DNA of 64,000 nt from Candidatus Pacearchaeota archaeon (GCA_026414385.1 JAOAJC010000001.1:2384-66383), one strand, 5' to 3'. Numbered from the stretch's first letter, positions 21,185 to 40,123 are shown. Notes: generated from the letters alone by a model not told the origin. Translations and numbers: made by a program.

Positions 21185-23011
21185 ATGCGTAAAAGAGGAT
21201 ATGTTATCAGCATAATAATTGTTTTTGCAATATTAATGGCAAACTTTTCAATTGCTGCAACTAATGAGAGTGAGGTAGTTAGTGTTGATAAGGCTTATAA
21301 ATGCCTAAATGAGCAAATTAAAAAAGTTGGTTCAAATATCGGATTCCAAGACGCGATTTTTGCACAGCTTGCAATTGGTTCAGTAAAAGAAACAAGAGAA
21401 AAAATTGAGAGCGAAAAAAGTTCTACTGAAAATTGTTGGCCAAAAGCAGGATGTAAGATAAAAGAAACAGCACAGGTAATGTTGGCTTATGATAGGGTAG
21501 GAAAGAGCACTTCTGAAATAAGAAAATGGCTAATGTCAAAAAATGCGAGCGCAAGTGAGTTAATATGGTTTTTAGAAATTGATATAACAAACAAAGAAGT
21601 TTCAACATGTAGTTTGAAATACGATGGAGTTCAATATAGCATAAAAGTAAATGAGGAACAAAAAATATCTGGGAATGCTGGAAATTGTTTTGTAATTGCG
21701 AATAATGGTTATATGTTAAGAGTTAGCAATAATTGTATTGGAAAAGAGTTTGAAATATCTTGCGACAAAGATTTTGTAACAGCTATGATTTATCAATCAA
21801 GTACTGGAAAAACATTATTTATTCCGCCAAAAGCGACAGGCGCATCTGGTGGCGGGACAACAAAAGAAAAAGCTATTTCGCAATGTTTTAAGACAACAGG
21901 AGCAGGGTGCGATTATGAAGGGACATTATGGGCAGTCCTTGCTCTTGAAAAATTGGGCGAGGAGACAGATGCATTTTTACCATACCTTTATGCATTTGCT
22001 GATTCTAATAAAAGATATTTTCCATCTGCATTTTTGTACATGATTACAAGTGGTGAGGACCAATATGATTCTATAATTTCTTTGCAAAAACAAGGAAAAT
22101 ATTGGGAAATTGCGGGAAGTCCTTATAATAAATATTATGATAGCGCACTGGCGTTAATGGCATTAAGCAAAACGACATCGCAAGAGGCAGAAAACGCAAA
22201 AGCAAATTTATTAACAATACAAACTCCTGATGGGTGTTGGAATAATAACAATATAAGAGATAGCGGATTTATATTATATGCAGGGTTTACGAAGAGTGTT
22301 GGGAGAGAGGGTGGAGGAGAGGTTCCAAAATGCACTGCACCATTTTCATGTACAGGTTTATTTGATTGTGAAAAAGCTGGTGGGACAAGACAATATAATT
22401 ATGATTGTTCATCAGAGGGGGCTACAAAGATATGCTGTTCAATAAGTGTTGTTGAAGAAACTTGTAGTAAAAAGGGAGGGGTGTTATGTGGTGCAAATGA
22501 ACAATGCACTGGTAGAACAGAACCGTCAAAAGATGGAAGTTGTTGTATGAGTGGTTTTTGTGAAGAAATCCCGGTTGTAGAGGACTTGTGTAGTAAAGCG
22601 GGAGGGACGTGTAAATTTGTGTGTGAGGAAGGGGAAGAAAAAAGTAGCGAAACATGCGCAAACACAGAAGAAGTTTGTTGTGTTAAAAAAGGAACAAGCA
22701 TTTGGTTTTGGATTGTATTACTAATAATATTAATTGCACTAACAATAGTCGGGATTGTTTATAGAAATCAGCTAAGATTATTTTGGTTTAAAATTTGGCC
22801 AAAAATAAAAGAGAAATTCATGGGAAAGAAAGTTGAGAGTAAAGCTATGCCTACAACGCAACCAACAACAAAAGCCCCTATTATGACGCCACAAAGAATG
22901 ATGCCAAGGCCAGCTTATCCAATATCGCAAAGAAGTCCGGGAATAGCAAAATCTTCAAAGGAAAAAGAAATAGAAGAAACATTAAGAAAACTAAAAGAGA
23001 TGGGAAAATAA
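21185..23011 (+). CDS. Secreted membrane-anchored surface protein with a toroid-like domain and three Cys-rich modules
   Basis: N-terminal signal/TM. The N-terminal alpha-repeat domain has a QW-like motif (LLTIQTPDGCWNNN). Three tandem Cys-rich modules (C..GG..C......CC) precede a single TM (IWFWIVLLIILIALTIVGIVY) and a basic/Pro-rich cytoplasmic tail. Confidence 0.6.
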   Translation: MRKRGYVISIIIVFAILMANFSIAATNESEVVSVDKAYKCLNEQIKKVGSNIGFQDAIFAQLAIGSVKETREKIESEKSSTENCWPKAGCKIKETAQVMLAYDRVGKSTSEIRKWLMSKNASASELIWFLEIDITNKEVSTCSLKYDGVQYSIKVNEEQKISGNAGNCFVIANNGYMLRVSNNCIGKEFEISCDKDFVTAMIYQSSTGKTLFIPPKATGASGGGTTKEKAISQCFKTTGAGCDYEGTLWAVLALEKLGEETDAFLPYLYAFADSNKRYFPSAFLYMITSGEDQYDSIISLQKQGKYWEIAGSPYNKYYDSALALMALSKTTSQEAENAKANLLTIQTPDGCWNNNNIRDSGFILYAGFTKSVGREGGGEVPKCTAPFSCTGLFDCEKAGGTRQYNYDCSSEGATKICCSISVVEETCSKKGGVLCGANEQCTGRTEPSKDGSCCMSGFCEEIPVVEDLCSKAGGTCKFVCEEGEEKSSETCANTEEVCCVKKGTSIWFWIVLLIILIALTIVGIVYRNQLRLFWFKIWPKIKEKFMGKKVESKAMPTTQPTTKAPIMTPQRMMPRPAYPISQRSPGIAKSSKEKEIEETLRKLKEMGK

Positions 23012-23063: not shown

Positions 23064-23996
23064 ATGAAAAAGATTGTGCTTTTAGTATTTTTTGTTTTTC
23101 TATCTAGCAGTGTGTTCGCCATAAGCGTTGATATAAAAAATAATTATTTACCAAGGCAAACAGTTATAGCGAAGATATCTGGTGAGGTTTTAGATATTTT
23201 AACAAAAGATAATATTCAATTCAGGAGAGGACATGTTGCGATTCCATTAGAACATGATTTAAAAAAAATAGGGGAAGAGTATTATATTTGGTTTATAACT
23301 CCATTTTTAGAGAACAACTATACGATTATAATAAAAAATATTGCTACAACTGTTGGCGGTTTTGTGAAAAGAATAGATTATGAAAAAAATTTCTCTGTGA
23401 TTGGAAATGCGAGCTATTCAATAAAGCCAGGTTTTGTTTATGCGACAAAAGATTTTGAAATAGCAGTGTTATTATATGAAGATGAAAGAAAGCAAATAAA
23501 AGTTAATTTTTTAGATGAACAGGAGATTGTTTTAAAGCCAGGAAATAATTTATTAAAATTTTCAATAGGAAGCATAAATGAGAGTGGATTTTATAACTTG
23601 ACAATAGGAGAGTATAATGTTCCAGCATACATAATTCCAAACAAGACATTTTATAAAAAGATAAATGAAACAAATGTTACGGCAAAAAACATCATTATTG
23701 AATATGAAATTAAAAATAAGACAAAAATAAACGAGACAAAAAAATTTGAAGTGTATTGTTATGAATATCCTGGGAAAATATGTGGAAATGAAGAAATTTG
23801 TGATGGTGAGACAAGAGAAACAATTGACGGATTTTGTTGTATTGGAACATGTAAGGGAAAAGAAAAGCAAAGTTCTGCATTATGGGGGTATTTATTAATT
23901 ATTGTTGTGGTTGCAATTTTAGGATATATTGGATGGAAATATTATAAAACAAAAGAAGAAAGAAAAAATATATTGCAAAAAAATGTGGCAAAATAA
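23064..23996 (+). CDS. Secreted surface protein with a Cys-rich juxtamembrane module and C-terminal TM anchor
   Basis: Signal peptide MKKIVLLVFFVFLSSSVFA. Module CYEYPGKICGNEEICDGETRETIDGFCCIGTCKG aligns with the modules of the upstream gene, then a TM and a KKTKEERKN tail. Confidence 0.55.
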   Translation: MKKIVLLVFFVFLSSSVFAISVDIKNNYLPRQTVIAKISGEVLDILTKDNIQFRRGHVAIPLEHDLKKIGEEYYIWFITPFLENNYTIIIKNIATTVGGFVKRIDYEKNFSVIGNASYSIKPGFVYATKDFEIAVLLYEDERKQIKVNFLDEQEIVLKPGNNLLKFSIGSINESGFYNLTIGEYNVPAYIIPNKTFYKKINETNVTAKNIIIEYEIKNKTKINETKKFEVYCYEYPGKICGNEEICDGETRETIDGFCCIGTCKGKEKQSSALWGYLLIIVVVAILGYIGWKYYKTKEERKNILQKNVAK

Positions 23997-24544: not shown

Positions 24545-25225
24545 TTAAATCCTTCTCAAAATGAGATAAATAAGAATTAAAACAAAAATAATCAAAAATG
24601 CGTAAAAAAAATAAAACCACAATTTTAGTTTGTGGGTTGTTTGAGTATTTGTTTTTTTATTGAGATGGATTTTTTCGTTGCTTTTCGGTTGTTCTTCGTC
24701 TATTTTTTTTGGCATCTCTTCTTTTAGTGGAACGAAATCAGAAATAGAAGTTGTTAATTTTGGTGATTCGGATTTGGAAAAAGAATCTAATGATTGAGTT
24801 GGGGAGGAATTTGTTGTTTTTGATTCTTGTTTTTTTTCATTTGGTAAAATTGTTATCGGATTGCAAACTTCTGAAAAAGAGGAAGAGTTTGTTTTTCTTA
24901 ATCTCGCACAAATATTTGTTGCTCCGACATAATATGATTTAATCTTAAACTCTTTTGTTTTTGGAAAAACTTCTTTTAGATAATAGAATGGGTTGTTCCA
25001 TTTACCATCATAATAGATTTCGGAAAATTCTTTTGAATCATCATTTATAAATATTTTAACATCATAATTATTTGTTATAGAGGAAGATGTTGAAATAGAA
25101 ACAGAAAAGCTTTCATTAACGATTGATGATGATGGAGATATAAATTGAAATTCTAATGAAGATGATAGATTAATGGAAATTATCAAAATAATTAAATAAA
25201 GAACATTAATAACCATAGCTTTCAT
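24545..25225 (-). CDS. Ser/Thr-rich secreted protein with N-terminal signal and C-terminal TM anchor
   Basis: Start refined to MKAMVINVLYLIILIISINL (signal). Ser-rich ectodomain and a C-terminal TM LWFYFFYAFLIIFVLILIYLIL. Immediately downstream of the nuclease gene on the same strand. Confidence 0.45.
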   Translation of the reverse strand: MKAMVINVLYLIILIISINLSSSLEFQFISPSSSIVNESFSVSISTSSSITNNYDVKIFINDDSKEFSEIYYDGKWNNPFYYLKEVFPKTKEFKIKSYYVGATNICARLRKTNSSSFSEVCNPITILPNEKKQESKTTNSSPTQSLDSFSKSESPKLTTSISDFVPLKEEMPKKIDEEQPKSNEKIHLNKKTNTQTTHKLKLWFYFFYAFLIIFVLILIYLILRRI

Positions 25226-25952
25226 AGTGAGCAATTCCTCCGTTGTTATCAAATAGATATAAGCTATCCCTATCATTATTCCATATGTCAGTTTTTGAAT
25301 TCCAAAAAATATCTGTTGAATTATCTTTACCTATATTAGAATGGAGAGTAATTTTTGAAAAACTAATGTTTTTGAATGAATAGATCTTTCTACTCTCGTC
25401 CTTTATTGTAAAGCCAGTCATTGAAATGTTGCAATTGTTTATTATTATTATTTTTTCTTCTTTCGGGTTTATGTCTGTGCTAAAACAATTATAATAAATA
25501 GAAGGTTTCCATATTCCCAAATGATTTTTAATTGCGTTTTTTTCTGCATTTGAAAATAATTTTAGCTCTGATTCTTGAACAAGAAATTTTGATGCAAGGC
25601 CAAGTTCAACAATCCTTAAATTTAAGTATTCGGGAACATAAATTCTTGCAAGATATCTGTTATATTTATCTATGTCAATTATTTCTATATTGACTGACTT
25701 ATTTTCATAAGATTTAAGAAAACCTATTGCTAAATTTGATATTTGTAGATTTTTTTCTGGGGAGTTGATATTAATGAGACGGATTGTTCTATTATCTTCT
25801 AAAATTAGAGTATCGCCATCAATAACTCTTGAAATTACCACACTTTCTATTTTTTTATTTTTTTCGGAAATTAGAAGTGAAGAAAGGTGAAAAAGTGCAA
25901 AAACAAATAAAGTTATAAAAAATGCTAATAAAAAAGCGTATTTTTTATTCAT
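25206..25952 (-). CDS. Membrane-anchored extracellular thermonuclease (staphylococcal nuclease fold) fused to a lamin-tail domain (LTD)
   Basis: N-terminal TM anchor. SNase motifs VIDGDTLILEDNRTIRLININSPE, DKYNRYLARIY and KNHLGIWKP. C-terminal region ...IINNCNISMTGFTIKD...IWNNDRDSLYLFDNNGGIAHYESYGY fits the LTD pattern (W-N-N-x-G-D...L.D..G..VD...Y). Confidence 0.7.
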   Translation of the reverse strand: MNKKYAFLLAFFITLFVFALFHLSSLLISEKNKKIESVVISRVIDGDTLILEDNRTIRLININSPEKNLQISNLAIGFLKSYENKSVNIEIIDIDKYNRYLARIYVPEYLNLRIVELGLASKFLVQESELKLFSNAEKNAIKNHLGIWKPSIYYNCFSTDINPKEEKIIIINNCNISMTGFTIKDESRKIYSFKNISFSKITLHSNIGKDNSTDIFWNSKTDIWNNDRDSLYLFDNNGGIAHYESYGY

Positions 25953-27525: not shown

Positions 27526-27981
27526 ATGAAAAGAATTGCTAAAAGAGGGTTGTCGCCAATTATTGCGACAACATTGTTAATCTCGCTTGTGGTTATATTA
27601 TCAACAGTAATATTCATATGGGCGAGATCTTATTTTGGAGAGCAAATAACAAAGTTTGGTGGGCCTATTGAAGATTCGTGTAAAAATGTTGATTTCAGCG
27701 TAAGTTTTTCTGGGGGGATTTTAAGCATTGCAAATAATGGAAATGTTCCGATTTATGGAGTTAAGATATATGAAGAAGGAACTTTTGGAACAAATGATTT
27801 GGGAGATATAACAACCAAGGTTATTTTTCCTGGAAAAACAGGAGAGATGAGAGCAAATATGATTAATAATAACAATGTTAATAAAATTGTCGTTGTTCCA
27901 ATTTTGTTAGGAGTTATTGAAGAAAAAGAAGAGACAAAAGCATTTGCTTGTGATATTAATTATGGCAAAAACATAGGATAG
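27526..27981 (+). CDS. Archaeal type IV pilin (PF07790-like N-terminus, class III signal peptide)
   Basis: MKRIAKRGLSPIIATTLLISLVVILSTVIFIW matches the [KR]G-x-SP[IV][IV]AT-x-L[LI] archaeal pilin N-terminus. Confidence 0.75.
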   Translation: MKRIAKRGLSPIIATTLLISLVVILSTVIFIWARSYFGEQITKFGGPIEDSCKNVDFSVSFSGGILSIANNGNVPIYGVKIYEEGTFGTNDLGDITTKVIFPGKTGEMRANMINNNNVNKIVVVPILLGVIEEKEETKAFACDINYGKNIG

Positions 27982-27985
27982 AACA

Positions 27986-28525
27986 ATGGACAAAAAAAGA
28001 GGCATGTCGCCTATTGTTGCCACGGTTTTGATTGTTATGTTAACTATTGCAGGTGTTGCAGCAATTGCGAGCTTTGTTATTCCATTTATTAAAAAAAATT
28101 TGGAAAGTGGAAGTGAGTGTAAAGATTATGAAGATTATTTTGTTTTTGACGAGAGTTATAGATATAATTGCTATACTGGTAGCGGAAACAACACGGTTTA
28201 TGGATTTTCTGTAAAAGCGAAAGCTGATACAAAATCTTATCAAAATTTGAAAGGTTTTGTTATTGTGTTAAGAGCAAATGACGGAACATCAAAGAGCTAT
28301 GAAATAGTAAATGGTAGTCAGGCAGGGGAGATAAAAACCTGTGGAAAAACAAAAGTTGAATTGCCATATTCTGGTGGAATAAAAACATATGGATTTCGGA
28401 AAGAAAACATAGTTTCTGCAATAATCCAAACAAAACTTAAATCAGGAAAAATCTGTAAAGAAGCAGATAAAATAGATTTTTATAGGTGCGAATATTCAAT
28501 TGGAGAGACGCTGAAAACATGCTAG
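27986..28525 (+). CDS. Archaeal type IV pilin (PF07790-like N-terminus)
   Basis: MDKKRGMSPIVATVLIVMLTIAGVAAIASFVIPFI is the same class III signal motif. Confidence 0.75.
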   Translation: MDKKRGMSPIVATVLIVMLTIAGVAAIASFVIPFIKKNLESGSECKDYEDYFVFDESYRYNCYTGSGNNTVYGFSVKAKADTKSYQNLKGFVIVLRANDGTSKSYEIVNGSQAGEIKTCGKTKVELPYSGGIKTYGFRKENIVSAIIQTKLKSGKICKEADKIDFYRCEYSIGETLKTC

Positions 28526-29046
28526 TAAAAAAAGGACAGGTTTGGCTTGAAACGGTTTTATACACTTTAATAGGGCTTGTATTAATTGGAATGGTTCTTG
28601 CGTTTGTTATGCCAAAAATTAATGAGGTAAGAGATAGGGCGCTTGTTGAGCAAGCAATATCAACATTTAGTTTGTTGGACGAGAAAATAAATGAAGTTTT
28701 ACAAAAAGGAGCGGGAAATACGAGGAAAATTGATTTTATAATGAAAAAAGGCGAACTCTATTTTAATATGAGTAATGATGAAATTGTTTTTGTGATAAAA
28801 GAATTATCAAAACCATATTCAGAACCTGGAATAGAAATAGAACGAGGAAATATGAAAATATTGAGTTTGCAAAAAGCAAAAACAAATGAAGTGTATTTAA
28901 AATTGAAATATGACTCAAATCTAACATATTCTGGCAGCGATAACTTAAAAAAATTGACTTCTGCATCAACTCCTTATAAGATTTTTATTGAAAATAAAGG
29001 TGTTGTTGGGGAAAGAGAGTGGATAAACATAGAAGAGGTTTCTTAA
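28519..29046 (+). CDS. Pilin-like protein with class III signal and Glu at +5
   Basis: Start refined to the overlapping ATG (ATGCTAG) giving MLVKKGQVWLETVLYTLIGLVLIGMVLAFV. KKG then QVWLE places a Glu five residues after the predicted cleavage site. Confidence 0.55.
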   Translation: MLVKKGQVWLETVLYTLIGLVLIGMVLAFVMPKINEVRDRALVEQAISTFSLLDEKINEVLQKGAGNTRKIDFIMKKGELYFNMSNDEIVFVIKELSKPYSEPGIEIERGNMKILSLQKAKTNEVYLKLKYDSNLTYSGSDNLKKLTSASTPYKIFIENKGVVGEREWINIEEVS

Positions 29047-29101
29047 TAAAAAAAGATAGGTTTAAATAAATCTTTTCTCTGATTAGTAGTAATAAAAAAA
29101 G

Positions 29102-30625
29102 ATGGTTCAAAAGATAAATTTAAATCCTGCAATTCCAAAGCTTCAAAAATTTGAAGATAAAAAAAAGATAGATGTTAGATATGCCCTTATTTCCCCATAT
29201 GCATTCGCGCATATCTATTGGAGAGAGGACATAGGCGAGGTAGTTTATGAGATTGAAGAACCGGTATTAAATGAAAAGGAAAGAGCTTCTCTTGAAAAAT
29301 TAGAAAATGCAATGCTTGAACTGATAAACATAAATGTGGCTGTTGAAAAAACATTGGAAGCGACAACAGAATATATTGATAAAACAGCAAAATTACTTAT
29401 TGCAGAACTTAATTTAAATATTAGTGATGAAACTTACGAAAAATTGTTTTATTATTTGTTTAGAAACTTTATAGGGCTAAATGAGATTGAACCATTATTG
29501 AGAGATTATTATATTGAAGATATTGAGTGTAACGGGGTGAATACCCCGGTTTATGTCGTGCATAGGGTTTTTAGAAATTTAAGAACAAATTTGACTTTTA
29601 AAGACATGGATAAAGCAGCGAGCTTTGTAGAGAAGCTTGCGCAGAGATGCGGAAGATATATTTCTTATGCACAACCATTGCTCGATGGAACATTGCCTGA
29701 TGGTTCAAGAGTAAATGCAACATATACAAAAGAGATAACTTCAAAAGGGCCAACATTTACAATAAGAAAATTTACGAAAATACCTTGGACTCCAACGCAA
29801 TTAATAGCATTTAATACGATGAGTGCTGAAATGGCTGCGTATTTTTGGATTCTTATCCAATATAAATCGAGTATTGTTGTTGCGGGAGGAACTGGTTCGG
29901 GAAAAACTACTTTCTTAAATGCGATGGCTTTTTTTATTCCGCCAGAGGCAAGAGTAGTCAGCATAGAAGATACGAGAGAAATAAACTTACCAAGAGAAAA
30001 TTGGTTACCTTCTGTTGCGAGGCCATCAATTGGGGTTGGAAAGGTTGGCGAAATTGATTTGTTTGAATTATTAAAAAGTTCATTTAGACAAAATCCAGAT
30101 TATATTATTGTGGGAGAAGTGAGGGGGAAAGAAGCATTTGTGCTTTTTCAAGGAATGGCTTCTGGACATGCTTCTTTGAGTACAATGCACGCAGATTCTG
30201 TTGAAACAATGGTTAGAAGATTAGAAACTCCGCCAATAGAACTCTCTCCAACATTAGTAAATACACTTGATTGTGTTGCTGTTGCTGCGAAAGCATTGAT
30301 AGGGCAGCAAGAGTCAAGAAAAATAAGAGAAGTTTCTGAAATTGTTGAAGTTAATAAAGATGGCAGTGTTATAATAAATACCCCTTTAATTTGGGATCCG
30401 AAAACAGACAAATTTCTTTTTAGAAAAGAGAGCAAAGTATTTGAAAAAATAGCAGGAAGATTTGGAATGACTATTGATAATTTGTACAAAGAATTCACGA
30501 TAAGAACAAAATTACTTTACGAATTAGCAAGAAGAAAAGTGTTTGGATTTGAAGAGATACAAAGAATAATAAACGATTATTATAAAAATCCTGCAGAAGT
30601 GTTAAGTAGATATGGAATAGGTTAA
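29102..30625 (+). CDS. Type IV pilus/secretion assembly ATPase (FlaI/TadA/PilB family)
   Basis: Walker A VAGGTGSGKTTFLNAM, Asp box, Walker B DYIIVGEVRGKEA, and His box GHASLSTMHADS. Confidence 0.85.
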   Translation: MVQKINLNPAIPKLQKFEDKKKIDVRYALISPYAFAHIYWREDIGEVVYEIEEPVLNEKERASLEKLENAMLELININVAVEKTLEATTEYIDKTAKLLIAELNLNISDETYEKLFYYLFRNFIGLNEIEPLLRDYYIEDIECNGVNTPVYVVHRVFRNLRTNLTFKDMDKAASFVEKLAQRCGRYISYAQPLLDGTLPDGSRVNATYTKEITSKGPTFTIRKFTKIPWTPTQLIAFNTMSAEMAAYFWILIQYKSSIVVAGGTGSGKTTFLNAMAFFIPPEARVVSIEDTREINLPRENWLPSVARPSIGVGKVGEIDLFELLKSSFRQNPDYIIVGEVRGKEAFVLFQGMASGHASLSTMHADSVETMVRRLETPPIELSPTLVNTLDCVAVAAKALIGQQESRKIREVSEIVEVNKDGSVIINTPLIWDPKTDKFLFRKESKVFEKIAGRFGMTIDNLYKEFTIRTKLLYELARRKVFGFEEIQRIINDYYKNPAEVLSRYGIG

Positions 30626-30687
30626 AATGTGAAAATTTCTTAAGCCATATTGATTAAATTTAATAAGATTGAAAAATAAATATAATT

Positions 30688-30849
30688 ATGAAAAAAGAGG
30701 ACATTAATTTAATTGCCAGAGTATTGACGGACATGAAAGATTCTTTAACTGAAATTGAAAATGCGTTGAAAAATAAAGACATTGGAAAATTAAATGAAGC
30801 AAAATCAAAGATTTTGAGGTTGCAAATAGAGATAGATAAAAGAATATGA
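30688..30849 (+). CDS. Small coiled-coil ORF (53 aa) between the ATPase and the membrane platform gene
   Basis: MKKEDINLIARVLTDMKDSLTEIENALKNKDIGKLNEAKSKILRLQIEIDKRI, with a stop codon overlapping the next ATG (ATGA). Below the ORF-track size cutoff. Confidence 0.3.
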   Translation: MKKEDINLIARVLTDMKDSLTEIENALKNKDIGKLNEAKSKILRLQIEIDKRI

Positions 30850-32138
30850 TAACCCAAATAGAACAACTAAAAAAGAACATAGATGGTGAAATAAAGATAT
30901 TAGGAGAGATTTCTAATTTATTTGTTAGGTTTGAAAATAGCACTGGAGAAGAAAGAAGAATAATTCTTAGTACAATTGATTCACTATCTAAAAATATGAA
31001 GATGATAAACCGAGCGATTCCAAAAATTCTTGAGAGTATTGTCATTGAGGAAAGAAAAGAAAAGAAAGAAGACAAACTTGAGAGAATAGAAGAAGGAATT
31101 GCGGAGGGGGTTGTTTTGAAACTAGAGGACAAGGAAAAATTCTTAACAGAATTAAACATAAATGAAGAGTTTATTAAAAAATTAAAGAAAAAGAAAAGTG
31201 AGGGTGAAGAAAAATATGAAGAATTCAAAAAAGCAAGAGGTTATTTGAAACTTGCAAATAGGTTTTTTTTAGAAAGTTCTATTAGTATGGTAAAGAAAGG
31301 ATATTTCAGTGATTTATACAATGATTTAAAAAAATCAAATTTAAACATTCTTCTTGAAGGATATGTTGCGATGATGCTTTTAACAAGCGTTATTGCGTTT
31401 TGTTTGGGGGTTTTTTTGTTTGTTTTTTTTATGTTATTTGATATTAGTTTTTCGATGCCTTTAATAAGTGCCTATAAAGGCGGGTTTTTTCCGAGATTTT
31501 CAAAAATAATATGGCTACCTTTAATTATGCCATTGATAACTTTTATAGCACTCTATATTTACCCATCAACAGAGGCAAAATCAATTGAAAAAAATATAAA
31601 CGAAGAATTACCATTTGCTGTGGTGCATATGAGTTCTATATCAGGTTCTGGGATAGCGCCTGTGGAAATTTTCAAAATTATTGGGAATAGCAAAGATTAC
31701 CCATATCTAAAAAGAGAGTTAAGAAAAGTGTTAAACCAAATCAACATATATGGATATGATTTAGTTAGCGCATTAAATAATGTCTCAAAAAGTACACCAA
31801 GTGCAAAATTAAGTGCCTTGATGGCTGGATTATCAACTACAATAAATACTGGTGGAAATTTGAGCGATTTTTTTCAGAAAAGAGCTGATTCATTGCTATT
31901 AGAGTACAAGTTAGATAAGGAAAAATTCATAAAAGTTGCAGAGACATTTATGGACATTTACATAAGCGTCGTAATTGCTGCACCAATGATAATTATGTTG
32001 TTGTTAATAATGATATCAATATCGGGATTACAAACAGGATTCTCGCCATATCAATTAACATTCATCACAATAGCAGGAGTAGCTTTTGTTAATATTATAT
32101 TTTTAGCATTTTTACAAACAAAGAAAGGAATTGCATAA
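30846..32138 (+). CDS. Pilus assembly membrane protein, FlaJ/TadC-like, N-terminal half (T2SS-F domain)
   Basis: Cytoplasmic coiled-coil N-terminus, then TM helices and a T2SSF-like domain (ELPFAVVHMSSISGSGIAPVEIFKIIG...LSALMAGLSTTINTGGNLSDFF). Confidence 0.7.
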   Translation: MITQIEQLKKNIDGEIKILGEISNLFVRFENSTGEERRIILSTIDSLSKNMKMINRAIPKILESIVIEERKEKKEDKLERIEEGIAEGVVLKLEDKEKFLTELNINEEFIKKLKKKKSEGEEKYEEFKKARGYLKLANRFFLESSISMVKKGYFSDLYNDLKKSNLNILLEGYVAMMLLTSVIAFCLGVFLFVFFMLFDISFSMPLISAYKGGFFPRFSKIIWLPLIMPLITFIALYIYPSTEAKSIEKNINEELPFAVVHMSSISGSGIAPVEIFKIIGNSKDYPYLKRELRKVLNQINIYGYDLVSALNNVSKSTPSAKLSALMAGLSTTINTGGNLSDFFQKRADSLLLEYKLDKEKFIKVAETFMDIYISVVIAAPMIIMLLLIMISISGLQTGFSPYQLTFITIAGVAFVNIIFLAFLQTKKGIA

Positions 32139-32986
32139 TGAAAATAAATAGAACAAAATTGCTTGGAATTATAGCAGGAATAATTGTGATAGTTGTTGAT
32201 TTAATATTTTTCTTTGGTGAAAAAGCATTTATGTTTATCATCGGCATAGCAATTGTTGTAGCATTAACACCTTTTATAATTGAAATAGTAAGGGAGGGAA
32301 AAAGGGCAGAGGATATCGAAGAGAAATTTCTTGAATTTTCAAGAAATCTTGCAGAAAGCGTAATGACTGGAACTCCGATAAGTAAAAGTATTGTGAATAT
32401 ATCAAAAAAGAATTATGGTGCTTTGACTCCCCACGTGCAGAAATTATCAAATCAAATTCAATTAGGAATACCATTAAGTAAGGCATTGCAAATATTTGCA
32501 AATGATATTGATAATGTTGTTATAACTAGAGCAATAGCACTAATAAGTGAGGCTGAAAAAGCTGGTGGAGAAATTGATTATATTCTCGATTCTGTTGCTA
32601 AATCAATTGCAGAAACAGAAAAACTAAAAAAAGAAAGAAAATCTGCAATATTTAATCTTGTAATGCAAGGATATATTATATTCTTTATATTTATAGGAAT
32701 AATGCTCGTAATGGAGTTTAAAATATTGCCACTTGCGACAGGAATTGGTGGGGGGGGCATTTCTGGAGTAGAAATTGGTGGAATGATACCTGTTGGAGGA
32801 CAAACAATGAATCCTGAAGAGATATCAAATTTATTCTTATACTTGCTTTTAACACAAGGATTTTTTGCAGGATTGACTATTGGAAAATTGAGCGAGGGTT
32901 CTATAAAAGCTGGGATTAAACACTCGTTTATACTTGTTATTGCAGCATTTTTAATATCAACGGGAGTAAGAGCTTTGTTTGTTTAA
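32138..32986 (+). CDS. Pilus assembly membrane protein, FlaJ/TadC-like, C-terminal half (second T2SS-F domain)
   Basis: TAATG overlap with the upstream half. TM, then T2SSF-like IEEKFLEFSRNLAESVMTGTPISKSI...LISEAEKAGGEIDYILDSVA, then TMs. Confidence 0.65.
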   Translation: MKINRTKLLGIIAGIIVIVVDLIFFFGEKAFMFIIGIAIVVALTPFIIEIVREGKRAEDIEEKFLEFSRNLAESVMTGTPISKSIVNISKKNYGALTPHVQKLSNQIQLGIPLSKALQIFANDIDNVVITRAIALISEAEKAGGEIDYILDSVAKSIAETEKLKKERKSAIFNLVMQGYIIFFIFIGIMLVMEFKILPLATGIGGGGISGVEIGGMIPVGGQTMNPEEISNLFLYLLLTQGFFAGLTIGKLSEGSIKAGIKHSFILVIAAFLISTGVRALFV

Positions 32987-33046
32987 AAACATAATTGAAC
33001 TTTGTTATAAAGCAAATTTAATAAACTAAAAAAAATTAAGAAAGAT

Positions 33047-33745
33047 ATGAAAAAGAGAGGGGCGAGCAATATAGAGTTTATACTTGCATTTGTATTGTTT
33101 GTCGGATTTGTAGCAACGATTTTTTATTTTTTTAATCCTATTAGAAATGTTAATTATATGGAATCATCTTTAAACTATGTTATTGGAGCGATAGAGAAAA
33201 ATGTAACTAGTGAGATTGATGAAGTTGGGATATTAATTAAAGGTTCAAGTTCGGGGGGCAATATTGCAAAGGTTAAGATAAAAGACATTTCAAATGATAA
33301 AAAAGTTGATGCAAGAGATTATTATGGATTTCGATTTGATGCAAAAAGAAATGGTGAAGAAGTTTATATTGATTTAAAAAATAGAGGAACAAATAACAAT
33401 TTTATAATATTTAGGTTTAATGAGGAATTTAATGAGGAAACAATTTCTAGTGGCCAAGAAAGAGAATATACAATATCAACAAAAGATTCAAGAAAAATTG
33501 TTTCTGAAAAAAAAATAAAGCAATTAAGCGAGAGATACGCAAATAATTATTTAAAATTGAAAGAAGAACTAAAAATTCCTGCGAACATTGATTTTTCATT
33601 TTCGTTAGAATTGCAAGACAGAAAAATAGAAGTAACAAAAGATATTCCTGCAAGAGCAGAAGTATTTGCAAAGGGAAAATTAATTGAAGTATTAAAAGAA
33701 AATGAGGTGACTGAAACCGGATATTTAACAATAAGAATATGGTAA
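33047..33745 (+). CDS. Pilin-like/minor pilin protein (class III signal, Glu+5)
   Basis: MKKRGASNIEFILAFVLFVGFVATIFYFF. If cleaved after RG, Glu is at +5. Confidence 0.5.
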   Translation: MKKRGASNIEFILAFVLFVGFVATIFYFFNPIRNVNYMESSLNYVIGAIEKNVTSEIDEVGILIKGSSSGGNIAKVKIKDISNDKKVDARDYYGFRFDAKRNGEEVYIDLKNRGTNNNFIIFRFNEEFNEETISSGQEREYTISTKDSRKIVSEKKIKQLSERYANNYLKLKEELKIPANIDFSFSLELQDRKIEVTKDIPARAEVFAKGKLIEVLKENEVTETGYLTIRIW

Positions 33746-34167
33746 ATAAAAAAGGAATAGTTAGAATAATTGAAGCCAGTGTTGCAATATTAATTATATT
33801 GTCTGTAGTATTAGTGGTTTCTGAAAGAAAAAAATTGCAAATTGAGAGCGATTTAAGTGAGAGAATAACTCCATTGTTAGAAGAAATAGCAAAAAATGGG
33901 AGTATGAGAGAAGCGATAATAAGAGATAATGAAACGAATAATGATGCTGAAAATCTTGTTATGGATTTTTTGAAACAAAGAATAAAAGAGACATTTATAG
34001 GTTATAATGTAACAATATGTAACTATACTCTTGTTTGTGGATTAAGAACATATCCAACAGAAGCAAAAGGCAACATTTATTCTGGAGAGAGAGTGATTAG
34101 CACAACATTAGAAAATAGACAGTTCAATCCAAAAAAAATAAAGATTTTCTTATGGATTAAAAGATAA
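33739..34167 (+). CDS. Pilin-like protein (class III signal)
   Basis: MVNKKGIVRIIEASVAILIILSVVLVV. Confidence 0.45.
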   Translation: MVNKKGIVRIIEASVAILIILSVVLVVSERKKLQIESDLSERITPLLEEIAKNGSMREAIIRDNETNNDAENLVMDFLKQRIKETFIGYNVTICNYTLVCGLRTYPTEAKGNIYSGERVISTTLENRQFNPKKIKIFLWIKR

Positions 34168-34299: not shown

Positions 34300-35907
34300 A
34301 TGAAAAGAGAGGTTTTTTTTATCGGATTTGTAATATTTATAATAACGTTTGCAAGCGCTATTTGCAATGATGAGAATCAGGTTATTTTAAGATTATACAG
34401 AGAGAATAACTCTCATGCGGCAATATGGTCAAATACAACTTATAGCGAAAAAGTGTGTTTTAATGATATTTTTGGACTAAATTATTCAGGAACAAATCCA
34501 CACGATTGTAATAGTGATAATAGTAATGTTGTTTTAAAGCTAAATCAAGAGTTTAATGCGCATGCTGCACTGCCAACTCTTCCAGATAGTGTTGTTGGAT
34601 TCCCAATAAAAGTTTGTTATAAGGGAGTAAAAAAATGTGAATTGTTTGATAATGATAATTGCAGAGCAAATCAGAAAGCAATTCTTTATTTTAATAGCGT
34701 GATTAACTCTCATCTTTCAAAAAATTATGGAGGGGATTTTACAAAAACATTGTGTTGTTATAGATATGATGCGATAATTCATCCGGAATGGTGTTTTGCA
34801 AATAACATTAGCAGTTGTGATAGATATAATAGTCAAACTAATTGCACTCAAGATTTATGTAATGCCTCATTAGTAGATCCAAATTGTCCTCTCGGAGCAA
34901 CTTGTAATTGTGCTTGGGAAAATAATCAATGCAAATTAAAAGTAATAACCACTCCTCCAGCCCCGCCATTTTGTTCTACTATAAATTCATGTGGAGATTA
35001 TAAAGAACAAAGTAAATGTTCTGAAGATATGTGTAACGTTTCTGGGACAGGATATAAGTGTGAGTGGAATATCGCAGATGGAAAGTGTGAGAAAGTTCAA
35101 ATCCCTGGATGGTGTTCTGTAATTAGTAGTTGTAGTAATTATACAACGCAAGCAAATTGTAGCGCGAATCCTTGTTTGGAGGGAAAAGCATGTTATTGGA
35201 ATAATAGTGTTTGTAAAGATTATAAAGCAGATGATAAATGTAGAATAAATAATATAACGAAATGTGCAAATTATGTGGACAAAGATCCGTGTAATGATGA
35301 TGCTTGTAATGTATCTATAATTGGTTGTTCTCCTAATCAGTTATGTTGGTGTGCTTGGGAAAATAATAAGTGTGAGAAAAGAGAAAAAGATAGAGAAGAA
35401 AAAAGAGATTTTTGCGATTATATAGATTCTTGTAGTGATTATGATACTTCAAATAAGTGCGAAAATGATAATTGTGGAATTGCAGATTATGATGAGAATT
35501 GTCCTATTGGTAGAGATTGTTCGTGTAAGTGGATAAGTAATGTTGGTTGTGGAGTATCATTTGAGAGTGGGGGAGGGAGTGGTGGCAGGATGCCTCCTGG
35601 TTCAGGTGGGTGGGGCAATCCAGGTTGCAAATATAATTGTACAATTAATACAAAACAAGGAGAGTGTAAAGAAGGATTTATGGATGTGATAGTAAATGCA
35701 GAAACTAGGATAATACAAGGATGTACAGGAGCAACAGGAAGTCCACTAGATTGTCAAACTAAAACAATAAAGGGAGTTCCGTGTGCATTAGCAGAAACAG
35801 AATTGCCTTTTTTTGAATTTTGGCAAATCCTCATTTCTATTGTGGGGATTGTATTTGTCTATTTGTTTTTATTAAAAAATTGGGAAAAAATAAAAAAGCA
35901 TATATAA
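34300..35907 (+). CDS. Secreted Cys-rich repeat protein (five ~40-aa C-x-x-Y/x-x-x-x-C-x-x-D-x-C-N-x-S...C-x-W-x-N-x-x-C modules) with C-terminal TM anchor
   Basis: Signal peptide. Repeats CDRYNSQTNCTQDLCNAS...CNCAWENNQCKLK, CGDYKEQSKCSEDMCNVS...CEWNIADGKCEKV, CSNYTTQANCSANPC...CYWNNSVCKDY, CANYVDKDPCNDDACNVS...CWCAWENNKCEKR, CSDYDTSNKCENDNCG...CSCKWISNVGCG. Many N-x-S/T sequons. Gly-rich linker and TM at the end. Confidence 0.6.
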   Translation: MKREVFFIGFVIFIITFASAICNDENQVILRLYRENNSHAAIWSNTTYSEKVCFNDIFGLNYSGTNPHDCNSDNSNVVLKLNQEFNAHAALPTLPDSVVGFPIKVCYKGVKKCELFDNDNCRANQKAILYFNSVINSHLSKNYGGDFTKTLCCYRYDAIIHPEWCFANNISSCDRYNSQTNCTQDLCNASLVDPNCPLGATCNCAWENNQCKLKVITTPPAPPFCSTINSCGDYKEQSKCSEDMCNVSGTGYKCEWNIADGKCEKVQIPGWCSVISSCSNYTTQANCSANPCLEGKACYWNNSVCKDYKADDKCRINNITKCANYVDKDPCNDDACNVSIIGCSPNQLCWCAWENNKCEKREKDREEKRDFCDYIDSCSDYDTSNKCENDNCGIADYDENCPIGRDCSCKWISNVGCGVSFESGGGSGGRMPPGSGGWGNPGCKYNCTINTKQGECKEGFMDVIVNAETRIIQGCTGATGSPLDCQTKTIKGVPCALAETELPFFEFWQILISIVGIVFVYLFLLKNWEKIKKHI

Positions 35908-35949: not shown

Positions 35950-38649
35950 ATGAATAAAAAAAGAGTGAGCGTTGTTTTTTGTTTTATATTCTTATTAGTT
36001 ATTATTAGTTTTGTTTCTGCATCTTTTAGTTTTAAAAATGAAAATTTGCAAAGAACATATGTTGGTGGAGAGATGATTAAGGGATTTATAAACATAAGTT
36101 TCTCAAATGAGAATGCACATAGTTTATTAACTAGTAATTTTAATGGAACAATAACATTAATTGAATTATTGAAAAAAAATAACTTTATCGAAAATAATGA
36201 TTACATATGTTCTAGAAAAAAATGCGAAATTGATTATAAAGCAGACGAAGAAATAAACAGTTTAAATTTAAATGATGATGATAGTAAAATAATTGGCTTT
36301 AAATTAACTGGAAATAATGTAGAAATAAGTTCGTTAAAATTATCTTTGGCAACAAATGCAGATGCTTCGTGCGAGAGAGAAATTTTGATAGATGTTCTTG
36401 ATAGAAACGAGAGTTTTATACAGAGCACAAAAAAAACAAAGGATATTTGTGAAGAAGAGTATTTTGGTTGTTTTGACGAAAACGAAGATACAAGTTATGT
36501 AATTATATCAGAATCAGGATATTGTGAAAAGATTGAATTGCCGCCAGCACCTGCATATATGATAGGAGCAAAAGTAAAAAATGGAACAGCGACAGCAAAA
36601 TTAACAATGAAATTATATGATGGTTCATGGAATGAGTTGGGTGAATGTGAATTACCAAAAAACTCACAAAATATTGAAAAACTGACATGCCAAGTTAATT
36701 ATTCAAATAAAGAAAAGAAAGAATTTATGATTTGCATTTCTTCTTCATCAGAAGACGCAGAATATCAGATAAGGAGTGAAGAATCTAGAGAAACATGCGG
36801 AACGGATAATATGGGTAGCTCTTATAATATTGATTTTGAGATATTTGCAAAAAAAGTTAAATTTGCTCCGATAGGGATATTATCAATAAATGAGACGACT
36901 TTTTCAGAACAAAATGATGGAAATAACTTAAATGATTATATAGATAGTTATATAGAAGAAAAATATGAAAGAAATTGTTCAAATGGGTGCATAATTCCGT
37001 TTAGGATTTATGGGAATAGTCAGACAATTACAAAAGAAAGTGCAACATTAAAATATAGAGAAGGTAGTGGTAGAGTGTTGCGTACGACAGGTGCTATTTA
37101 TTCTATTGAAAAAGAAGATGCAAAAATAACTACAAAAAGAGCATTAAACATAAATATTGAAAAGGCAGGTTTTTTCATACCTCTCTTATCAACAGCAAAA
37201 CAATTATTAATTTATTTGGACAATAAGATGATATTGCCAAAAGCTATTCCGATAAATGTTACAAAAGGATTTGATTTTGATATTTCACCAAAAGAAGTTA
37301 GCATTGGTATAGTAACTTATTTTAATATAATAACAACTGAGAATATAACTTCGTCCAAGTGGAATTTTGGAGATGGAACAATTGAAACATTTGATGGAAA
37401 AGGAGCCGTACATAAATATGTTGGATTACCAATTGGAACAAATGAGTATAGTGTTGAAGTAATCGTAACAAGAAAAGATGGAGTAATATCAAAAAAAATA
37501 TTTAAAATAGGGATTGAGCCATTGTCAGAAAGCGCAAAAACCTTGCTTAATATATCAAATTCAAAAATAACAAAATTAAACTCAAAAATAAACTCTTATC
37601 CTGAGTGGATTGGAGATTTAATAAAAACAAAATTGAATTTTGATAATATGAATTCTGTTATTACGAAAGGAAAAATTGCTATTTTGAATGCTTCAACTAA
37701 TGATGATTATATGGCAATAATAAATCAAATGTTAGGATTAGAAATTCCCGATGAAATAATTTCAAAAGAGATTGGAAAGGATATTAATCCTGTTGTTGGA
37801 TTTGAAAAAATAGAAACGTCTGCCATTGAACAGATATCAAATAAAAAGGTAAGCTCAGATAAAAAAGCAGAACTAAAAGAAGCGATTATTAAATGGATGG
37901 CGAGAAATGCAAACATGAAATTAGAGTATGAAAAGATATTTCAGATAGATGAAAATGGGGAAAAAATTTTACTTAGTAAATTGGTGATAGATGTTAATCC
38001 AAAAGAAAAAGCTTATTTGATAATAAATTATCCACTCAACAGCATAAAATTCAATGGAAATTATTCTGAAAGTGCAATTGGTTCTTTTAGTTATATCCCT
38101 ATAAAAGAACCAAAAATAATAGAATTTGCAATTATGGATAATGTTAATGTTGGGGATTTAGGTATTTATCTATCGCCAACAATTGATAAAGTTTATGTAC
38201 AAGCAGAAGTTGTTAAGGAAGAATTTAATTGGAGTAGATTTATAACGTGGATGATTGTTTTGTTCGTAATTGCTTTTATAATATACATTGTAATGCAAGA
38301 ATGGTACAAAAGATATTACGAAAAATCATTATTTAAAAATAAAGATGACTTGTATAATTTAATTAATTTTATTTATAATGCAAAAAAAGCAGGAATGAAA
38401 GATGAAGAATTAAGAAATAAGTTGAGTGATGCAAAATGGAAAGGCGAACAAATAACATATGCTCTAAGAAAAGCAGAAGGAAAAAGAACTGGGATGTGGG
38501 AAATACCAATATTTAAATATTGGGAACAAATGGAAATAAAAGCAGAGATTGCAAAAAGAGTGGGTGAGCAAAAAACAAGCGCGCAACAACAGTCAAATTC
38601 AAAAATGCATAATATAAAAACTGGGACACAACAAAGTTTATTAAAATAA
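35950..38649 (+). CDS. Large secreted surface protein with a PKD domain and C-terminal TM anchor
   Basis: Signal peptide. PKD motif WNFGDGTIETFDGKGAVHKYVGLPIGTNEYSVEVIVTRKDG. TM FITWMIVLFVIAFIIYIVMQEWY. 899 aa. Confidence 0.6.
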   Translation: MNKKRVSVVFCFIFLLVIISFVSASFSFKNENLQRTYVGGEMIKGFINISFSNENAHSLLTSNFNGTITLIELLKKNNFIENNDYICSRKKCEIDYKADEEINSLNLNDDDSKIIGFKLTGNNVEISSLKLSLATNADASCEREILIDVLDRNESFIQSTKKTKDICEEEYFGCFDENEDTSYVIISESGYCEKIELPPAPAYMIGAKVKNGTATAKLTMKLYDGSWNELGECELPKNSQNIEKLTCQVNYSNKEKKEFMICISSSSEDAEYQIRSEESRETCGTDNMGSSYNIDFEIFAKKVKFAPIGILSINETTFSEQNDGNNLNDYIDSYIEEKYERNCSNGCIIPFRIYGNSQTITKESATLKYREGSGRVLRTTGAIYSIEKEDAKITTKRALNINIEKAGFFIPLLSTAKQLLIYLDNKMILPKAIPINVTKGFDFDISPKEVSIGIVTYFNIITTENITSSKWNFGDGTIETFDGKGAVHKYVGLPIGTNEYSVEVIVTRKDGVISKKIFKIGIEPLSESAKTLLNISNSKITKLNSKINSYPEWIGDLIKTKLNFDNMNSVITKGKIAILNASTNDDYMAIINQMLGLEIPDEIISKEIGKDINPVVGFEKIETSAIEQISNKKVSSDKKAELKEAIIKWMARNANMKLEYEKIFQIDENGEKILLSKLVIDVNPKEKAYLIINYPLNSIKFNGNYSESAIGSFSYIPIKEPKIIEFAIMDNVNVGDLGIYLSPTIDKVYVQAEVVKEEFNWSRFITWMIVLFVIAFIIYIVMQEWYKRYYEKSLFKNKDDLYNLINFIYNAKKAGMKDEELRNKLSDAKWKGEQITYALRKAEGKRTGMWEIPIFKYWEQMEIKAEIAKRVGEQKTSAQQQSNSKMHNIKTGTQQSLLK

Positions 38650-38668: not shown

Positions 38669-39307
38669 ATGTTAAAGATATTAAAAAGTTTTGCGAAGAG
38701 AATTCTGAAAAGCATTTTTAAAAAAAGAGATGAAATAAAAATTGGATTTTATGGGCCACCAAATGCTGGTAAGACATCTATTGCAAACAAAATATGTAAA
38801 GATTGGACTGGAGAGGAAATAGGGAAAGTTAGTAAAATACCTCATGAGACAAGAAAAGTGCAATTCAAAGAGAAAGTTGAAATTGAACACAAAGGGAAAA
38901 AACTAACATTTAAAATAGCAGATACTCCAGGAATTGCCACAAGAATTGATTATGAAGATTTTTTAAAACATGGGTTAAATAAAGGGATTGCAAAAAAAAG
39001 AGCAAAAGAAGCTACGCAGGGAGTTATAGAATCAATAAAATGGCTTGATGATATGGATGCTGTTATTGCTGTTTTAGACGCAAGTGAGAATCCATATTCG
39101 CAAGTAAATGTTACAATATTAGGAAACATTGCTGCGAGAAACATTCCTGTTCTTGTTGTAGCAAATAAGATTGATTTAAAAAAAGCAGACATTAATCAAA
39201 TAAAAGCAGCTTTTCCAGATTATGAAGTTATTGGAATAAGCGCAAAAGAGGGAACAAATTTTGACGAATTTTATGAATCGTTATTTAAATTAGCAAAGCA
39301 GATTTAA
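38669..39307 (+). CDS. Small GTP-binding protein (P-loop GTPase)
   Basis: G1 GPPNAGKTS, G3 DTPG, G4 ANKID, G5 SAK. Confidence 0.75.
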   Translation: MLKILKSFAKRILKSIFKKRDEIKIGFYGPPNAGKTSIANKICKDWTGEEIGKVSKIPHETRKVQFKEKVEIEHKGKKLTFKIADTPGIATRIDYEDFLKHGLNKGIAKKRAKEATQGVIESIKWLDDMDAVIAVLDASENPYSQVNVTILGNIAARNIPVLVVANKIDLKKADINQIKAAFPDYEVIGISAKEGTNFDEFYESLFKLAKQI

Positions 39308-39313
39308 GATAAA

Positions 39314-39706
39314 ATGGTAAAAGAAAAAAAAATAAAAGGATTGAGTTTGCAACTAATTCCATTTTCAGAGCTAAGCGGGCTTGGAATATCAGAAAGAGTA
39401 AAAAAAGTGTTGTCTTTGGTATTAGATAATAAAATAGCCATAATCCAGGGGAGATTAAGGGCTGAAGAAGAAGCAAGATTAATTGAGGATACAATGGTTT
39501 TAGTGGATAGAGTAAAAAATTTTAAAGGTATAGAGTTGGCTGTGATTGAACCTGACTTAAAAGATGCTGGAATTTTTATGAAAGCTAAGCAGGCAATTGC
39601 AAATTCTCTAACTGGCAATAACAACGCCCTAACAGTCGTCGGTCCAGCTTCAATAATAAAAGAAATAAAAAGAAATCCAAAGAAGATTGAACTGATGCTA
39701 AAATAA
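39314..39706 (+). CDS. Archaeal conserved protein, DUF2073-like
   Basis: 130 aa. It is the conserved downstream partner of this GTPase in archaeal genomes (recalled from memory, not searched). Confidence 0.4.
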   Translation: MVKEKKIKGLSLQLIPFSELSGLGISERVKKVLSLVLDNKIAIIQGRLRAEEEARLIEDTMVLVDRVKNFKGIELAVIEPDLKDAGIFMKAKQAIANSLTGNNNALTVVGPASIIKEIKRNPKKIELMLK

Positions 39707-39727
39707 ATAAAACTTTATTAATCCATA

Positions 39728-40123
39728 TTGCTGATTTTTTGTATGCCATATAGGTGCGTACATTGTTCGGTAGTTTATGAAGATAGTGCAGAAGAACTAA
39801 TGCGTGGTTGCTCTAATTGTAAAAGCAAGTTCTTTTTTTATATAAAACCAGAGAAATTAAAGGAAATTGCAGAAAATGAGAGAGAAGAGAATTTTACAAA
39901 AGAAGAAAAAGAAAAAATGGAAAAAGATATAAGAGAGATTGTTGGGATAACTAATGAAGAAAAGCCAGTATTTTTAGATTTTGAAAGTATAAAAGTAATA
40001 AGACATGGAAAATATCTTATTGACTTACCAAAATTATTTGATTTAAAAAAACCAAGAGTTTATAGTTTAGAAGATGGAAAGTATATTATTGATTTAAACG
40101 TTCTAATGAAACCATCAAAATAA
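39728..40123 (+). CDS. Zn-ribbon-containing protein (DUF2072-like)
   Basis: CVHCSVVYED...CSNCKSKFFF ribbon at the N-terminus followed by an acidic coiled region. Third member of the conserved triad. Confidence 0.4.
   Translation: MLIFCMPYRCVHCSVVYEDSAEELMRGCSNCKSKFFFYIKPEKLKEIAENEREENFTKEEKEKMEKDIREIVGITNEEKPVFLDFESIKVIRHGKYLIDLPKLFDLKKPRVYSLEDGKYIIDLNVLMKPSK

Follow-up and report, generated by a model that had tools for sequence, protein, structure and literature searches.

A conserved type IV pilus locus, most likely adhesive, with a two-gene platform in Pacearchaeota and related DPANN archaea

Results

A 64,000-nt stretch of a 76.8-kb contig in a Candidatus Pacearchaeota metagenome-assembled genome (MAG), referred to here as the window, harbors nine genes at positions 27526–34167, all in the same direction, which quite probably encode an archaeal type IV pilus (type IV filament, TFF) conserved in the core genome of Pacearchaeota and related DPANN archaea. 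The pilus is most likely a non-rotating adhesion pilus, with two pilins (A and B) forming the fibre and three further pilin-like proteins (C, D, and E) as minor subunits. The locus represents a known kind of archaeal type IV pilus in a form specific to this lineage. A preliminary description of this DNA had reported a pilus locus with mixed pilin types and a split platform protein. All of the sequence features it named were found where it had placed them, and its overall reading stands as regards a pilus instead of an archaellum and the reality of the split; the oddity of the split was, however, overstated, and the label "bacterial" given to some of the pilins was wrong. Within the same coordinates, a fifth pilin-like open reading frame (ORF), E, is present which had not been listed.

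The analysis compared this stretch with related loci. One genome per species was scanned with the N-terminal half of the platform protein (N-half), relatives of which were found in 366 species-level genomes (366 loci). Eighty of these loci were fetched, and the conservation set comprised 83 loci in all, including three long contigs (L001–L003), from records labelled Pacearchaeota, Woesearchaeota, or Nanoarchaeota. The gene order thioredoxin reductase, A, B, C, ATPase, 53-aa protein, platform N-half, platform C-half, D, and E was invariant over the 83 loci at protein identities of 30–70%. On L001–L003, the thioredoxin reductase gene is followed by three to four pilin genes, the ATPase, the 53-aa ORF, and the two platform genes, and then by a ∼230-aa gene, a ∼145-aa gene, large surface proteins, and OapA/B/C. 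The median identity of the relatives' proteins to the window protein was highest for the ATPase (71%), followed by the platform C-half (58%), the platform N-half (49%), C (48%), the 53-aa protein (45%), A (36.5%), E (36%), B (34%), and D (30.5%). The motifs and gene junctions described below recur in 65–80 orthologous loci at just 30–70% protein identity, and owing to this recurrence among such diverged sequences they are beyond chance.

The N-termini of the orthologues were aligned on the predicted cleavage site, indicated below by a slash. Each of the five small proteins has [KR][KR]G ahead of a hydrophobic helix, an arrangement kept in 66–69 orthologues per protein. Pilin A (27526–27981, + strand, 151 aa) begins with MKRIAKRG/LSPIIAT, a class III signal, and is the candidate major subunit; pilin B (27986–28525, +, 179 aa) begins with MDKKRG/MSPIVAT and is a candidate major or alternative subunit. 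Neither contains the conserved Glu. The archaeal N-terminus RG-[LM]SPI[IV]AT reported earlier for two pilins is thus present, and both proteins exceeded the cut-off of TIGR02537 (arch_flag_Nterm; 24.8 vs. 20 bits) but stayed under that of PF07790 in Pfam (16–17 vs. 25.2 bits). A weak UpsA match was also obtained for A. The consensus sequences KRG/LSPVIAT for A and KRG/[LVI]SxVVAT for B, both devoid of Glu, were each conserved in 67 orthologues, and profile comparison showed A and B to be paralogues (hhalign, 98.7%).

The remaining three proteins bear a Glu close to the predicted cleavage site. Protein C (28519–29046, +, 175 aa) is a candidate minor or priming pilin with the N-terminus KKG/QVWLETVLYTLIG, in which Gln+1, Trp+3, and Glu+5 stand out. 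Its start is the ATG at 28519 within an ATGCTAG overlap with the stop of B (MLVKKG/QVWLE), as previously described for one of the pilins, and the NCBI annotation uses the same start and gives 175 aa. The consensus among orthologues is KKG/QVWIETVLYTLIG, with Gln+1 and Glu+5 each present in 63 of 68. At least 288 homologues of C were found, and the Gln, Trp, and Glu were invariant in an alignment of 42 sequences. The predicted model of C (predicted local distance difference test, pLDDT, 91) had the "lollipop" shape of pilins, with an N-terminal helix of 62 residues leading into a beta domain. Protein D (33047–33745, +, 232 aa; MKKRG/ASNIE) and protein E (33739–34167, +, 142 aa; MVNKKG/IVRIIEA) are candidate minor pilins. 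The consensus of D is KRG/xSHIE with Glu+5 in 66 of 69 orthologues, and that of E is KKG/WLRIVEA with Arg/Lys+3 and with Glu+6 in 63 of 66. The start of E overlaps the end of D, and the relatives show a median spacing of −7 nt from D to E. The motif exceptions in each orthologue set are probably mis-registrations by the simple cleavage-site finder.

Profile–profile comparison with hhalign showed that C, D, and E are distinct families, having only the N-terminal segment in common, and none of the three has a Pfam or NCBIfam model. Weak matches of C and D to Pfam DUF72xx families (DUF7285 and DUF7289) were seen, and a literature search on these families found nothing. A word-indexed search with D retrieved just six proteins; an exhaustive profile search revealed a large family of 2,006 clusters at 50% identity, 1,671 of them at E ≤ 1e-10, with lengths mostly of ∼225–260 aa among the best 150 homologues. 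In the AlphaFold2 model of D (pLDDT 80), an N-terminal helix is joined to a mixed domain.

The Glu at +5 had earlier been termed bacterial-style. The residue is indeed present in QVWLE and ASNIE, but the combination Gly−1/Gln+1/Glu+5 is the signature of the archaeal Epd pilins of Methanococcus, Glu+5 being absent in Sulfolobus and Haloferax pilins (Nair et al., 2013; PMC3875500). No bacterial pilin model was matched by C or D above cut-off; the N-terminus of C gave weak matches to GspG (residues 12–56) and ComGE (residues 16–84) with E ∼0.01, far below the cut-offs, and the relatives of C carry, where named, only archaeal source names and derive from archaeal MAGs. A bacterial origin of the Glu+5 proteins is hence unsupported.

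The platform protein is encoded by two ORFs joined by TAATG, as had been described. The N-half (30846–32138, +, 430 aa) consists of a ∼170-aa cytoplasmic extension followed by transmembrane (TM) segments and one T2SSF domain; the C-half (32138–32986, +, 282 aa) contains one T2SSF domain. Each ORF matched PF00482 once above the Pfam cut-off (1e-17 for the N-half and 4e-17 for the C-half). Along the FlaJ profile of 555 positions, the N-half covers 41–245 and the C-half 265–536. Since the halves match consecutive parts of FlaJ, together they correspond to the usual platform protein with two domains, divided between the two. Among the 80 loci holding both halves, a fused gene was found in none and the C-half was a separate ORF in all, and in 57 the two ORFs either lay 1 nt apart or overlapped by 1 nt. 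The window's N-half is 100% identical to a protein from a Candidatus Pacearchaeota MAG. The best 120 homologues of the N-half (48–79% identity) were nearly all 411–441 aa in length, each with a single T2SSF domain; the lone exception (339 aa) came from a 1.4-kb contig. By these comparisons, the split of the platform is an old, fixed gene fission.

The possibility of a frameshift artefact joining the two halves had been raised at the outset. According to this explanation, the split would be due to a sequencing or assembly frameshift, or the gene would be a pseudogene in a decaying locus. The TAATG junction, which a one-base error could produce, is all that favors it. The presence of two ORFs in every one of 80 independent assemblies, where the gap or overlap is mostly 1 nt, and the uniform length (∼430 aa) and single T2SSF domain of nearly all the best N-half homologues rule out such an error, and decay is at odds with the conservation of both halves (median identities of 49 and 58%). 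The likelihood of this explanation is therefore practically nil. The split, presented earlier as unusual, also has precedent, since two-gene platforms are already on record in clade 2, Epd/Tad, and DPANN systems.

The 53-aa ORF noted upstream of the platform (30688–30849, +) encodes a charged helical protein without a TM segment, and its end overlaps the start of the N-half by ATGA. Of the 79 loci holding both flanking genes, about 76 had a ∼53-aa ORF with the two-helix pattern LAQLLxxMKD...KKD...AKKEIL..Q, and the ATGA overlap occurred in 50 loci. No family match was obtained for this conserved protein in Pfam or NCBIfam.

The assembly ATPase (29102–30625, +, 507 aa) belongs to the AfGspE/FlaI family and matched PF00437 (T2SSE) with E-values of 1e-31 to 3e-31. 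It aligned over its full length to Archaeoglobus fulgidus GspE (2OAP) with 387 bits, compared with 283 for FlaI and 174 for CpaF. By alignment score, the ATPase is thus nearer to the non-archaellar AfGspE than to the crystallised FlaI. An archaellum providing rotary motility would be suggested by the best NCBIfam names of the ATPase and the platform, which are FlaI and ArlJ/FlaJ. However, the scores against these equivalogs are far too low, being 405.8 bits for the ATPase and 91.7 and 54.3 bits for the platform halves against a cut-off of 550 in each case. Further, no Pfam or NCBIfam match to archaellin, FlaF, FlaG, FlaH, FlaX, or FlaCDE (ArlCDE) was found in the locus, where homologs of flaH, flaG, and flaF had been proposed as a check, or among the scanned ORFs of the window. 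The unscanned ORFs, at ∼7.2–16.7 kb, are mostly small, have no more than one predicted TM segment, and are flanked by SecY and L4/L3; they are taken to be a ribosomal-protein cluster, which was not checked. In view of the low equivalog scores, the unmatched archaellum genes, and the closer resemblance of the ATPase to AfGspE, an archaellum is highly improbable, and the earlier preference for a pilus over an archaellum is borne out.

No A24 prepilin peptidase was found among the scanned ORFs of the window, whose only polytopic proteins are SecY, a presenilin/signal peptide peptidase (SPP) homologue, and the two platform halves; nor was a polytopic candidate peptidase ORF found within 8 kb of the locus in the 83 relatives. 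The prepilin peptidase of this lineage is apparently encoded away from the locus. The absence of peptidase and archaellum genes from the window had been used to argue for an adhesive pilus; none is indeed present among the scanned ORFs, but since such peptidases are usually unlinked, the missing peptidase says nothing about function. The presenilin/SPP homologue (42277–43170, −, 297 aa) is a 9-TM protein with YD, GGGD, and PAM motifs and the sole GxGD-type intramembrane protease in the window. It was considered as a candidate prepilin peptidase and rejected, as presenilin/SPP models align to it along their entire length (38.5 bits for Pfam SPP; 60 bits for NCBIfam PSH, under its cut-off of 125) and A24 does not.

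Downstream of E lie two genes for large, fast-evolving surface proteins, both of which begin with a signal and end in a TM anchor. The first (34300–35907, +) encodes a 535-aa protein built of Cys-rich repeats, a possible adhesin or envelope protein; it has fast-evolving syntenic homologues in 34 loci, with lengths of 317–771 aa among relatives. The second (35950–38649, +) encodes an 899-aa protein with a weak PKD_4 match (21 bits against a cut-off of 27), possibly an adhesin or an S-layer-like protein; syntenic proteins of 873–911 aa with PKD matches are present on L001–L003. The size and number of the homologues of both proteins vary among relatives. Immediately after these genes, at 38669–40123 (+), are an OapA-type GTPase, OapB, and OapC, followed by a putative CCA-adding enzyme. 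The GTPase gave an MMR_HSR1 match, and its name is inferred from its place beside OapB/OapC. The syntenic occurrence of this arrangement on L001–L003 indicates that the pilus locus resides in a fixed core-genome neighborhood.

The spacing between the platform C-half and D exceeds 300 nt in 66 of 69 relatives (median 821 nt). On the three long contigs, a gene for an FmrO-type methyltransferase lies between them on the opposite strand (L001, 11185–11946; L002, 11576–12304; L003, 11098–11865). The corresponding spacer in the window (32987–33046) is just 60 nt, and the methyltransferase gene is thus absent or relocated here. TATA-like TTTAATAA/TTTTTAAA boxes occur ∼25–40 nt upstream of A, the ATPase gene, the 53-aa gene, D, and the PKD-like gene. 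These suggest several transcription units, which is weak evidence at 30% GC and was not used. The GC skew is strongly positive over 20–42 kb and follows the coding strand.

Other features of the window may also be mentioned. A pair of pilin-like genes (49088–49558 and 49560–50087, both −) beside Mre11/Rad50 encodes the N-termini MQNKKA/ISEMISYVLL and MDKRG/QFFLMAAII, showing Gln+1 without Glu+5; these may be trans-encoded subunits of the same machine. A staphylococcal-nuclease homologue that has a membrane anchor and a lamin-tail domain is encoded upstream of the pilus locus (25206–25952, −), with synteny in relatives. It lies on the other strand and, judged by position only, could serve in the scavenging of extracellular DNA. 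Further upstream, a 608-aa protein (21185–23011, +; MRKRG/YVISIIIVFAIL) and its 310-aa two-TM partner (23064–23996, +) are syntenic on L001–L003. The N-terminus of the 608-aa protein bears a closer resemblance to a Sec signal peptide than to a class III signal.

Discussion

Both of the features that appear unusual in this locus, i.e., the split platform and Glu+5, have archaeal precedent in published clade 2 and Epd/Tad platforms and in Epd pilins. AfGspE belongs to clade 2 (arCOG01817), in which many loci have two tadC-like genes, and the clade 2 loci of Aciduliprofundum comprise an arCOG02911 pilin, the ATPase, a TadC of 332 aa, and a TadC of 290 aa; nanoarchaeal sequences already appear in the clade 2 neighborhood of the ATPase tree, and extra minor pilins and adhesins are on record for PilA-based clade 2 systems (Makarova, Koonin, and Albers, 2016; PMC4858521 and its supplement). 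For Epd and Tad, the pair of platform genes with one T2SSF domain each has been traced to an ancient fission of a two-domain gene (Denise et al., 2019; PMC6668835). A 2026 preprint reports two platform genes in DPANN systems, the Pacearchaeota lineage not being named, and lists DPANN among the lineages with system 1. Similar to the Aciduliprofundum loci, the present locus has the ATPase followed by two TadC genes of like size. The ATPase aligns over its full length to AfGspE (2OAP), and PilA-type pilins occur alongside other pilin-like proteins and large surface proteins, as in clade 2. However, there are deviations: the N-half is longer owing to its cytoplasmic extension (430 vs. 332 aa), a conserved 53-aa gene is placed between the ATPase and the platform, and C, D, and E have a near-invariant Glu+5/+6 and no Pfam or NCBIfam model.

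The Epd pilus of Methanococcus maripaludis (system 1, Tad-related) shares with the present locus two platform genes of one T2SSF domain each, the residues Gly−1, Gln+1, and Glu+5 (found here in C), and, probably, an adhesion role. Common descent with Epd, with a dedicated EppA-type peptidase acting on the Glu-bearing subunits, would account for the two single-T2SSF genes and the Epd-like signature of C, and the reported occurrence of system 1 in DPANN is in agreement with it. Against this, the order here is ATPase, N-half, and C-half, while that of Epd is platform–platform–ATPase, and the ATPase–TadC–TadC order is known from the clade 2 loci of Aciduliprofundum. The leading pilins are of the PilA type and devoid of Glu; major pilins of ∼70 aa lacking a globular domain are absent from the locus and from the window; and EppA, MinD/FleN (TadZ-like), and the DUF2341 adhesin were unmatched in the locus and the scanned ORFs of the window. 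Similarly, PF04021 (DUF361) was matched neither by C nor by 41 of its homologues, and the full-length alignment of the ATPase is to the clade 2 protein AfGspE. An Epd-like pilus is therefore considered unlikely. The bacterial Tad (Flp) system likewise has a platform of two single-T2SSF proteins and a related ATPase (CpaF/TadA, 174 bits), and it differs in possessing Flp-type short pilins, a secretin, and TadZ, none of which is present here. In tad operons, TadB, the half resembling the C-terminal domain, precedes TadC, the half resembling the N-terminal domain. The halves of the present platform are instead colinear with FlaJ, the correspondence of TadB and TadC to the FlaJ halves being that of PMC6668835. 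The pili of Haloferax volcanii (PilA1-6/PilB3-PilC3) and Sulfolobus (Ups/Aap) resemble the present system in the PilA/UpsA-like N-termini of A and B without Glu+5 and in a function that is probably non-motile adhesion here as well; they are reported to be without any Glu+5 pilins, and their best-known loci have a single platform gene.

A short pseudopilus or uptake pilus of the type II secretion system or Com kind was also weighed, in which a PulG-like C would be the main subunit and which would act in scavenging DNA or nutrients or in exporting protein at the site of host contact. It finds some support in the conservation of C, the highest among the pilin-like proteins, in the weak resemblance of its N-terminus to GspG and ComGE together with the label "pseudopilin PulG" given by JGI to many of its homologues, and in the syntenic upstream nuclease of the relatives. 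The GspG/ComGE matches are nevertheless confined to the N-terminal segment (E ∼0.01) and lie far under the cut-offs, the locus contains neither a ComEC-like channel nor a secretin-like partner, two PilA-type pilins lead the operon, and the nuclease gene is on the other strand with unrelated genes in between. Such a function is accordingly quite unlikely.

The reading that is preferred, a non-rotating adhesion pilus of the known archaeal kind, would operate as follows. An unlinked class III signal peptidase would remove the short leader, cutting after the Gly or Ala at −1. The platform halves would rejoin into the usual pseudo-symmetric platform and dock the hexameric ATPase, with the 53-aa protein and the ∼170-aa extension of the N-half as putative accessory or regulatory parts on the cytoplasmic face. 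The Glu-less paralogues A and B would polymerise into the body of the filament, and C, D, and E would be low-copy minor pilins priming assembly or capping the filament, their buried Glu possibly pairing with the N-terminal amine of a neighboring subunit in the manner of bacterial and Epd pilins. The two anchored surface proteins encoded downstream, Cys-rich and PKD-like, may be adhesins or envelope proteins, and the pilus would be used in surface or host attachment. The occurrence of A and B as paralogues and of C, D, and E as separate families fits a major-subunit pair with a heterogeneous set of minor subunits. Strong attachment of Pacearchaeota to their hosts has been reported, and images of ultrasmall groundwater cells that are likely candidate phyla radiation (CPR) or DPANN have shown pili-like appendages (PMC7906910), which fits an attachment role.

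Several observations weigh against this interpretation. The main uncertainty is the assignment of major and minor subunits, which is inferred from family resemblance and analogy. C is better conserved than A and B (48% vs. 34–37%) and could be a core structural subunit instead of a minor one. In fold searches, the model of C gave weak matches at best, with none in the PDB below E 0.1 (Foldseek), and the model of D gave no informative match. A prepilin peptidase was not located in the window scan or within 8 kb of the locus in the 83 relatives. The placing of the ATPase in clade 2 reflects its best solved-structure match and not a phylogeny, and no solved Epd-type ATPase was matched, which limits this comparison as an argument against system 1. 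The downstream surface proteins are tied to the locus by position only, and D and E are set apart from the platform genes by the wide spacing seen in most relatives.

New here are the joint occurrence of Glu-less and Glu-bearing pilins throughout the lineage, the 53-aa component, and the unannotated families, a modest advance; nothing is overturned, as the split platform and archaeal pilins with Glu+5 have both been published. The family of D, with ∼2,000 clusters, is large and unannotated and could receive a model of its own. Among uncultivated archaea that depend on a host, Pacearchaeota and their relatives rank with the most abundant, and their attachment genes have remained undissected. 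The present locus provides a single, strictly syntenic, core-genome candidate for an attachment organelle with a defined parts list, and the combination of Glu-bearing and Glu-less subunits in one system offers a natural test of the purpose of the conserved Glu in type IV pilins. It is tempting to speculate, though the proposal is a doubtful one, that a single machine obligatorily joins Glu-less PilA-type subunits with three unrelated Glu+5/+6 proteins, and that the locus, with the 53-aa partner and the neighboring adhesins included, encodes the organelle by which Pacearchaeota attach to their hosts. Were C, D, and E to form a priming or tip complex in such a machine, comparable to that of the bacterial minor pilins, Glu-dependent initiation would be ancestral across domains and would be no speciality of bacteria or of the Epd pili.

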